A stretch of DNA of 64,000 nucleotides from Glaucostegus cemiculus (Eukaryota). This document shows, in pieces, positions 5,063 to 5,104 of the stretch. The stretch lies in NCBI GenBank assembly GCA_976551045.1, contig CDPCPM010000087.1, positions 5,332,001-5,396,000 on the forward strand. The letters run 5' to 3'. The position numbers and the translations under genes were made by a program. The notes below the pieces were generated by a model. The model worked only from the letters and a program-made list of their open reading frames with translations, had not been told where the DNA came from and searched no databases. Position 1 is the stretch's first letter. Each line of letters begins with the position of its first letter.

Positions 5063-5104
5063 ATGCCGGATTATCTGTTCTCAGTGTCCTGGAGTTACAT
5101 TAAG
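5063..5104 (+). CDS. PDE4A: PDE4A super-short alternative first coding exon ([14 protein letters not shown])
   Basis: Kozak gccgccATG at 5063; donor AAG|gtgaga in phase 0, matching the FKRML exon; resembles the PDE4B5/PDE4D6 N-terminus MPEANYLLSVSWGYIK. Confidence 0.85.

Follow-up and report, generated by a model that had tools for sequence, protein, structure and literature searches.

The PDE4A gene of the ray Glaucostegus cemiculus contains a 14-codon exon homologous to the first exons of PDE4B5 and PDE4D6. It is likely an alternative first exon, specifying a super-short PDE4A of 504 residues, and likely descends from the one PDE4 gene present before the vertebrate duplications of the family (we give this reading a probability of about 0.8).

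A candidate start exon in the UCR2a-UCR2b intron

Positions below are those of the window, i.e. the whole stretch of 64,000 nucleotides that was analysed. The candidate start exon begins with an ATG at 5063, directly preceded by gccgcc, and runs for 14 codons up to a GT donor at 5105, in phase 0. It lies inside the 21,354-base intron of PDE4A that separates UCR2a (ending near 4689 in L006) from UCR2b (starting at 6044), and is in frame with UCR2b, whose acceptor AG is located just before 6044. This acceptor is common to the UCR2a exon and to the two super-short first exons described below. The 400 bases 5' of the exon contain no ATG, and an in-frame stop is found 17 codons upstream. The coding exons of the model are the following:

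5063..5104, + strand: B5/D6-type super-short first coding exon (sequence; 14 codons, phase-0 GT donor; mini-exon scan; residues identical to 1-14 of Heptranchias XP_067829006.1)
6044..6137, + strand: UCR2b exon (Pfam PDE4_UCR, E=1.3e-17; AG/GT ends)
10136..10317, + strand: UCR2c/LR2 exon (tblastn with Pristis isoforms; AG/GT)
10776..10874, + strand: catalytic-domain exon 1 (tblastn with Pristis isoforms; gene model)
12943..13107, + strand: catalytic-domain exon 2 (tblastn with Pristis isoforms; gene model)
13470..13569, + strand: catalytic-domain exon 3 (tblastn with Pristis isoforms; gene model)
14600..14754, + strand: catalytic-domain exon 4 (tblastn with Pristis isoforms; gene model)
16221..16343, + strand: catalytic-domain exon 5 (tblastn with Pristis isoforms; gene model)
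17522..17704, + strand: catalytic-domain exon 6 (tblastn with Pristis isoforms; gene model)
19657..20028, + strand: last coding exon, with the catalytic domain's end, the PQSP and FQF motifs and the stop (Pfam PDEase_I, E=6.7e-05; gene model)

These ten exons (5063-20028) add up to 1515 nt and encode 504 amino acids with one terminal stop, and all nine introns are bounded by GT-AG. The metal-binding His/Asp motifs and the substrate glutamine, searched with patterns that we take to be those of PDE4, each occur once, at residues 172, 212, 328 and 380. The catalytic motifs of the predicted protein are thus intact. An earlier reading, made from the sequence only, had proposed the exon and an isoform of 504 residues; the ATG, the 14 codons, the donor, the AG at 6044 and the open ten-exon model bear out the former, and the predicted length agrees with the latter.

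The specificity of the match was assessed by a mini-exon scan, in which every ATG-to-GT stretch of 10-30 codons on the coding strand of the entire 21,354-base intron was scored against the 16-residue B5/D6 peptide. Among 167 candidates the exon at 5063 scores 55 and the runner-up 27, and a score of 55 was reached by none of 300 shuffled queries. The match of this exon to the B5/D6 peptide is therefore not due to chance.

Short-unit tandem arrays are present in the introns of PDE4A (3650-4610, 12220-12860 and 14780-15540). Many broken LINE-like reverse-transcriptase fragments are found between 25,000 and 55,400. The next recognised gene downstream of PDE4A is a two-exon relaxin-3 gene (53162-55765, + strand), whose B chain matches relaxin-3 (E=3.5e-11) far better than INSL3, INSL5 or relaxin. 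Human PDE4A and RLN3 are presumably both on 19p13; our literature search on the PDE4A/RLN3 neighbourhood found no paper.

Assignment of the gene to PDE4A and its two super-short exons

A search of the genome identified four PDE4 genes, and in the tree each of the subfamilies A, B, C and D receives one of them. A 43-row maximum-likelihood tree, in which four outgroup rows (including a tunicate and two insects) provide the root, resolves as ((A,B),(C,D)), the same topology as in PMC2929239. The gene in the window falls within the mammalian PDE4A clade (support 97/97), and those on contigs C56, C29 and C15 fall in PDE4B (99/94), PDE4D (100/95) and PDE4C (98/98) respectively. An unrooted tree of the catalytic domain alone, from which 4 of the 40 chosen proteins were left out, recovers the A clade at 88/94; the branch uniting A and B has a support of 89/85 in the rooted 43-row tree and 100/99 in this unrooted one. 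Proteins of Pristis pectinata match the last exon at 97% identity. Judged by these trees the gene is PDE4A, and the orthology put forward in the sequence-only reading holds both for the catalytic domain and for the core alignment.

The gene could be viewed instead as a second PDE4B or PDE4D, the exon being simply that of B5 or D6. The RefSeq names of orthologous shark and ray isoforms (4B, 4B-like, 4D, 4D-like) go in this direction, as do a catalytic region 91.7% identical to that of PDE4B in the same genome and the scores of the Pristis orthologue, slightly higher against solved chains of 4B and 4D than against those of 4A. But the genome already has one gene per subfamily, forcing the five chondrichthyan rows into PDE4B is rejected by the AU test (p=0.0095), and the gene has a PDE4A1 exon, a type whose proteins are placed in the A clade in 93 cases out of 93 by FastTree. 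This reading is largely refuted and we regard it as very improbable. As for the names, isoforms of one and the same shark or ray gene are called 4B, 4D, 4C and 4A in RefSeq, which makes these labels unreliable.

The PDE4A1-type exon was detected by tblastn at G000:C87:5328399-5328464 (L005:6399-6464): 22 of 22 residues are identical to Pristis XP_051898234.1 and are followed by a GT donor. Residues 1-22 of the PDE4A1 query gave this single match in the genome search. The exon is located 3,537-3,602 bases upstream of the first base of the window, in the same UCR2a-UCR2b intron, and 8.6 kb 5' of the B5/D6-type exon. Read from its sequence, PDE4A of Glaucostegus cemiculus has two tandem super-short start exons, the PDE4A1-type first and the B5/D6-type second. 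The earlier statement that no PDE4A1 exon is present in 1-6043 is literally right, but reflects the edge of the window; the contrast that it implied between this gene and one using PDE4A1 is not supported, both exons being in a single gene.

The two exons share gene, intron and acceptor but differ in peptide. Their similarity is weak, being reached by 13 of 300 shuffles and probably due in part to a shared second residue. Their amphipathicity also differs: the hydrophobic moment of the PDE4A1 junction helix is up to 0.66 in pig and 0.53 in Pristis, and that of B5-type peptides up to 0.36-0.40. An amphipathic membrane helix like that of PDE4A1 was considered for the 14-residue peptide and is not favoured, its moment being at most 0.36.

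Two features of PDE4A1-type exons were noted in passing. At residue 21 the exon of Glaucostegus cemiculus specifies glycine, as do the fetched proteins of two rays (Pristis and Hypanus), against aspartate in the other 111 of the 113 PDE4A1-type proteins fetched. Asp21 is, we assume, the calcium-sensing residue of TAPAS-1, and because of this glycine batoid PDE4A1 may have lost the calcium gating of membrane binding. In teleosts most PDE4A1-type exons (P0304-P0354) have no counterpart of the start methionine of amniotes, and the models extend them N-terminally by some 60 residues.

Distribution and history of the exon

In the same genome PDE4B and PDE4D have a 16-codon exon at the same place, 1,098 and 7,281 bases 5' of UCR2b respectively. 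The PDE4A peptide is identical to this B5/D6 exon at 11 of 14 residues, being two codons shorter with three substitutions, while the B5 and D6 peptides are identical to each other at 16/16 residues. Together with the scan, this confirms the homology to the B5/D6 exon claimed from the sequence alone. Counted as same, synonymous and non-synonymous, the codons are distributed 4/7/3 between A and B, 5/6/3 between A and D, and 9/7/0 between B and D. This pattern and the 400-base upstream flanks, which cannot be aligned, fit a long divergence under selection on the peptide rather than recent copying. The PDE4A exon thus resembles those of PDE4B5 and PDE4D6 by its intron, its phase-0 splice to UCR2b and its invariant core. 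It differs from them by having 14 rather than 16 codons in sharks and rays, by varying more across species and by coexisting with a second super-short exon. For PDE4C no B5/D6-type exon was found in the corresponding 2.2-kb intron nor in the 40 kb upstream. This gene (G000:C15:1528177-1550661) has a long branch, joined by a PDE4C-like protein of Hypanus, and its catalytic region is 78-80% identical to those of the other three PDE4s of the genome.

Outside this genome, 576 proteins were fetched; a B5-type stretch lies right before UCR2b in 120 of them and a PDE4A1-type stretch in 113. From the protein set of 354, the 68 without the full catalytic stretch were left out. In the FastTree phylogeny of 215 rows, B5-type proteins are distributed between B (38), D (65) and A (13), with one outside. 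One of the 13 (P0145, from Nipponia) was removed as a truncated model of PDE4D, and three A-clade models were added later to the remaining 12. Among the matches listed there are therefore 15 automated PDE4A-clade models with the B5/D6-type exon, from 14 species: Pristiophorus, Heptranchias, Hemitrygon, gar, sturgeon, coelacanth, lungfish, Pleurodeles, Xenopus laevis, Bufo, Rhinoderma, Gastrophryne, Spea and Ranitomeya variabilis. Across the 15 models, 7 of the 11 final positions of the exon are invariant. Both super-short exons are modelled in seven of these species (Pristiophorus, sturgeon, gar, lungfish, Pleurodeles, Spea and Ranitomeya variabilis). The exon had been supposed to be kept in PDE4A in the lineage of the ray; its presence in the automated models of at least 14 species of cartilaginous fish, bony fish and amphibians indicates a much wider distribution.

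A close counterpart is RefSeq XP_072925408.1 of Hemitrygon, which has 504 residues, is 94.8% identical to the window model and differs by one residue in the start exon. This model and XP_067829006.1 (Heptranchias), XP_015204576.1 (Lepisosteus), XP_043940504.1 (Protopterus) and XP_053320817.1 (Spea) represent the same isoform of the orthologous gene. All such RefSeq and UniProt models are automated, unreviewed predictions, those of sharks and rays being named 4B-like, 4D or 4D-like. The isoform is thus already present in automated annotations and, as far as these predicted proteins indicate, is widespread in non-amniote PDE4A. In PDE4C a degenerate form of the peptide, 16 residues long, stands at the start of one axolotl model (XP_069505364.1, C clade 98/98).

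On the negative side, none of six fetched models of the gene in Pristis pectinata, the closest relative compared, starts with the B5/D6-type exon. Nor does the exon occur in 49 amniote and 51 teleost super-short PDE4A models; this absence is soft because these are protein models rather than genomic DNA and many were gathered through the PDE4A1 exon. The search aimed at the B5/D6-type exon covered the best 120 of 2366 cluster representatives and reached matches without the exon. Among 144 new representatives, which comprised no identified lamprey or hagfish protein, 33 from invertebrates or vertebrates have a UCR2b start and none of them has the exon; the same is true of the seven Clavelina models with a UCR2b start, out of nine listed.

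Six of the 15 PDE4A versions of the exon (P0026, P0076, P0095, P0107, P0179 and P0254) have an arginine four residues before the tryptophan. This variant creates what we take to be a match to the RVxF pattern of PP1 binding, which is lacking in the ray exon and in canonical B5/D6.

PDE4B and PDE4D are on opposite sides of the root of the family, and the exons of PDE4A and of axolotl PDE4C share their place and phase, so a single origin before the duplications followed by losses is the simplest history. Parsimony thus supports the pre-duplication origin proposed in the sequence-only reading, and it is parsimony only that dates the exon, since the search identified no PDE4 from lampreys or hagfish and the 33 representatives were all negative. 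One exon would have been inherited by all four paralogues and then lost piecemeal, probably in amniotes and teleosts for PDE4A and probably in most lineages for PDE4C.

A different history would have the exon arise once after the duplications and spread among the paralogues by gene conversion or exon shuffling. The full identity of the B5 and D6 peptides in this genome and the fact that no copy was found in invertebrates or in jawless vertebrates (the search covering the 33 representatives with a UCR2b start and the seven Clavelina models) are in its favour, and PMC2929239 argues that super-short exons arose independently in each gene. However, synonymous sites are largely diverged (7/16 codons between B and D, 7/14 between A and B) and the flanks are unalignable. 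Moreover, this history would require three or more transfers into one intron at one phase, those among A, B and D before the split of sharks and bony fish. Copying of this kind therefore seems improbable. We attach the same low credence to the possibility that the exon, though real by descent, is a silent or decaying relic in Glaucostegus cemiculus, with PDE4A1 as the sole expressed super-short form. The two missing codons and three substitutions would fit such a decay, as would the fetched Pristis and Hypanus models, which show the PDE4A1 start only, and the seemingly double loss of the exon from PDE4A elsewhere. But the ATG, the frame and the donor are intact and most codon changes are synonymous. 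Furthermore, the 14-residue form is common to sharks and rays, with 0-1 differences from the window exon in two sharks and one stingray. The deletion is hence old and the peptide has been conserved, which argues against a relic.

The inherited-exon reading can be extended to the origin of PDE4A1. The ancestral PDE4 would have made a super-short isoform, and a tandem duplicate of its exon in PDE4A would have become the PDE4A1 anchor and replaced the older copy twice, once in amniotes and once in teleosts; the two-exon state of sharks, rays, gar, lungfish and amphibians would then be an intermediate. We consider this extension unlikely, though somewhat less so than copying or decay. Its tandem-duplication step is based on the weak likeness of the two peptides mentioned above.

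Predicted isoform, significance and upstream region

From the predicted start and splice, an internal promoter would drive a transcript starting at the exon and spliced from 5104 to 6044. The automated gene models of related species are indirect evidence for use of such an isoform. Its product would have neither UCR1 nor the front of UCR2, and so would be subject neither to activation by PKA nor to the dimerisation of long forms, a loss that is established for super-short PDE4s (PMC2929239). The peptide's conserved core would serve as a short docking or localisation motif, distinct from the membrane anchor of PDE4A1. The latter contains TAPAS-1 and directs PDE4A1 to phosphatidic-acid membranes, as described in PMC6022864; this route is not favoured for the B5-type peptide, which is less amphipathic than the PDE4A1 junction. 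B5 and D6 are expressed in brain, and biochemical data on their interactions were lacking according to PMC2929239. In PMC7291338 the contact of B5 with DISC1 is mapped outside the unique N-terminus. An AlphaFold2 prediction, based on 12 aligned rows with the Heptranchias isoform as the first, was unusable (mean pLDDT 35.7).

The original description of PDE4B5, which deals with the PDE4B5/PDE4D6 super-short isoforms, is reportedly that of Cheung et al. 2007 (PMID 17519386). The evolutionary survey of PMC2929239, which included no cartilaginous fish, regards the homology of B5 and D6 as exceptional, lists a single super-short start for PDE4A and argues that short PDE4 forms appeared late, independently in each gene, by drift. 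Our reading would correct the three points, i.e. the single super-short PDE4A start, the exceptional character of the B5/D6 likeness and the late independent origins. A full-text search, with most subscription papers outside its coverage, found no publication that describes a B5/D6-type exon for PDE4A. The impact concerns the history of PDE4 isoforms and their annotation, without a new mechanism. The peptide has been retained on three or four ohnologues from a time preceding the divergence of sharks and bony fish, which points to a binding partner of B5/D6 that is itself conserved; natural variation on PDE4A and PDE4C reveals which positions of the peptide matter. Fish and frog models call for caution, as they may have a PDE4A isoform that is seemingly absent in amniotes.

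The region upstream of the exon was also inspected. A promoter shared by the A, B and D exons was considered and rejected, the 400-base upstream regions aligning no better than shuffles. Within 160 bases 5' of the ATG at 5063 there are two CRE half-sites (4906 and 4981) and a weak TATA-like stretch, which are absent 5' of the PDE4B and PDE4D exons of the same genome. Two such half-sites per 200 bases have a chance of about 0.008, calculated post hoc, and they could render the 5063 start inducible by cAMP.
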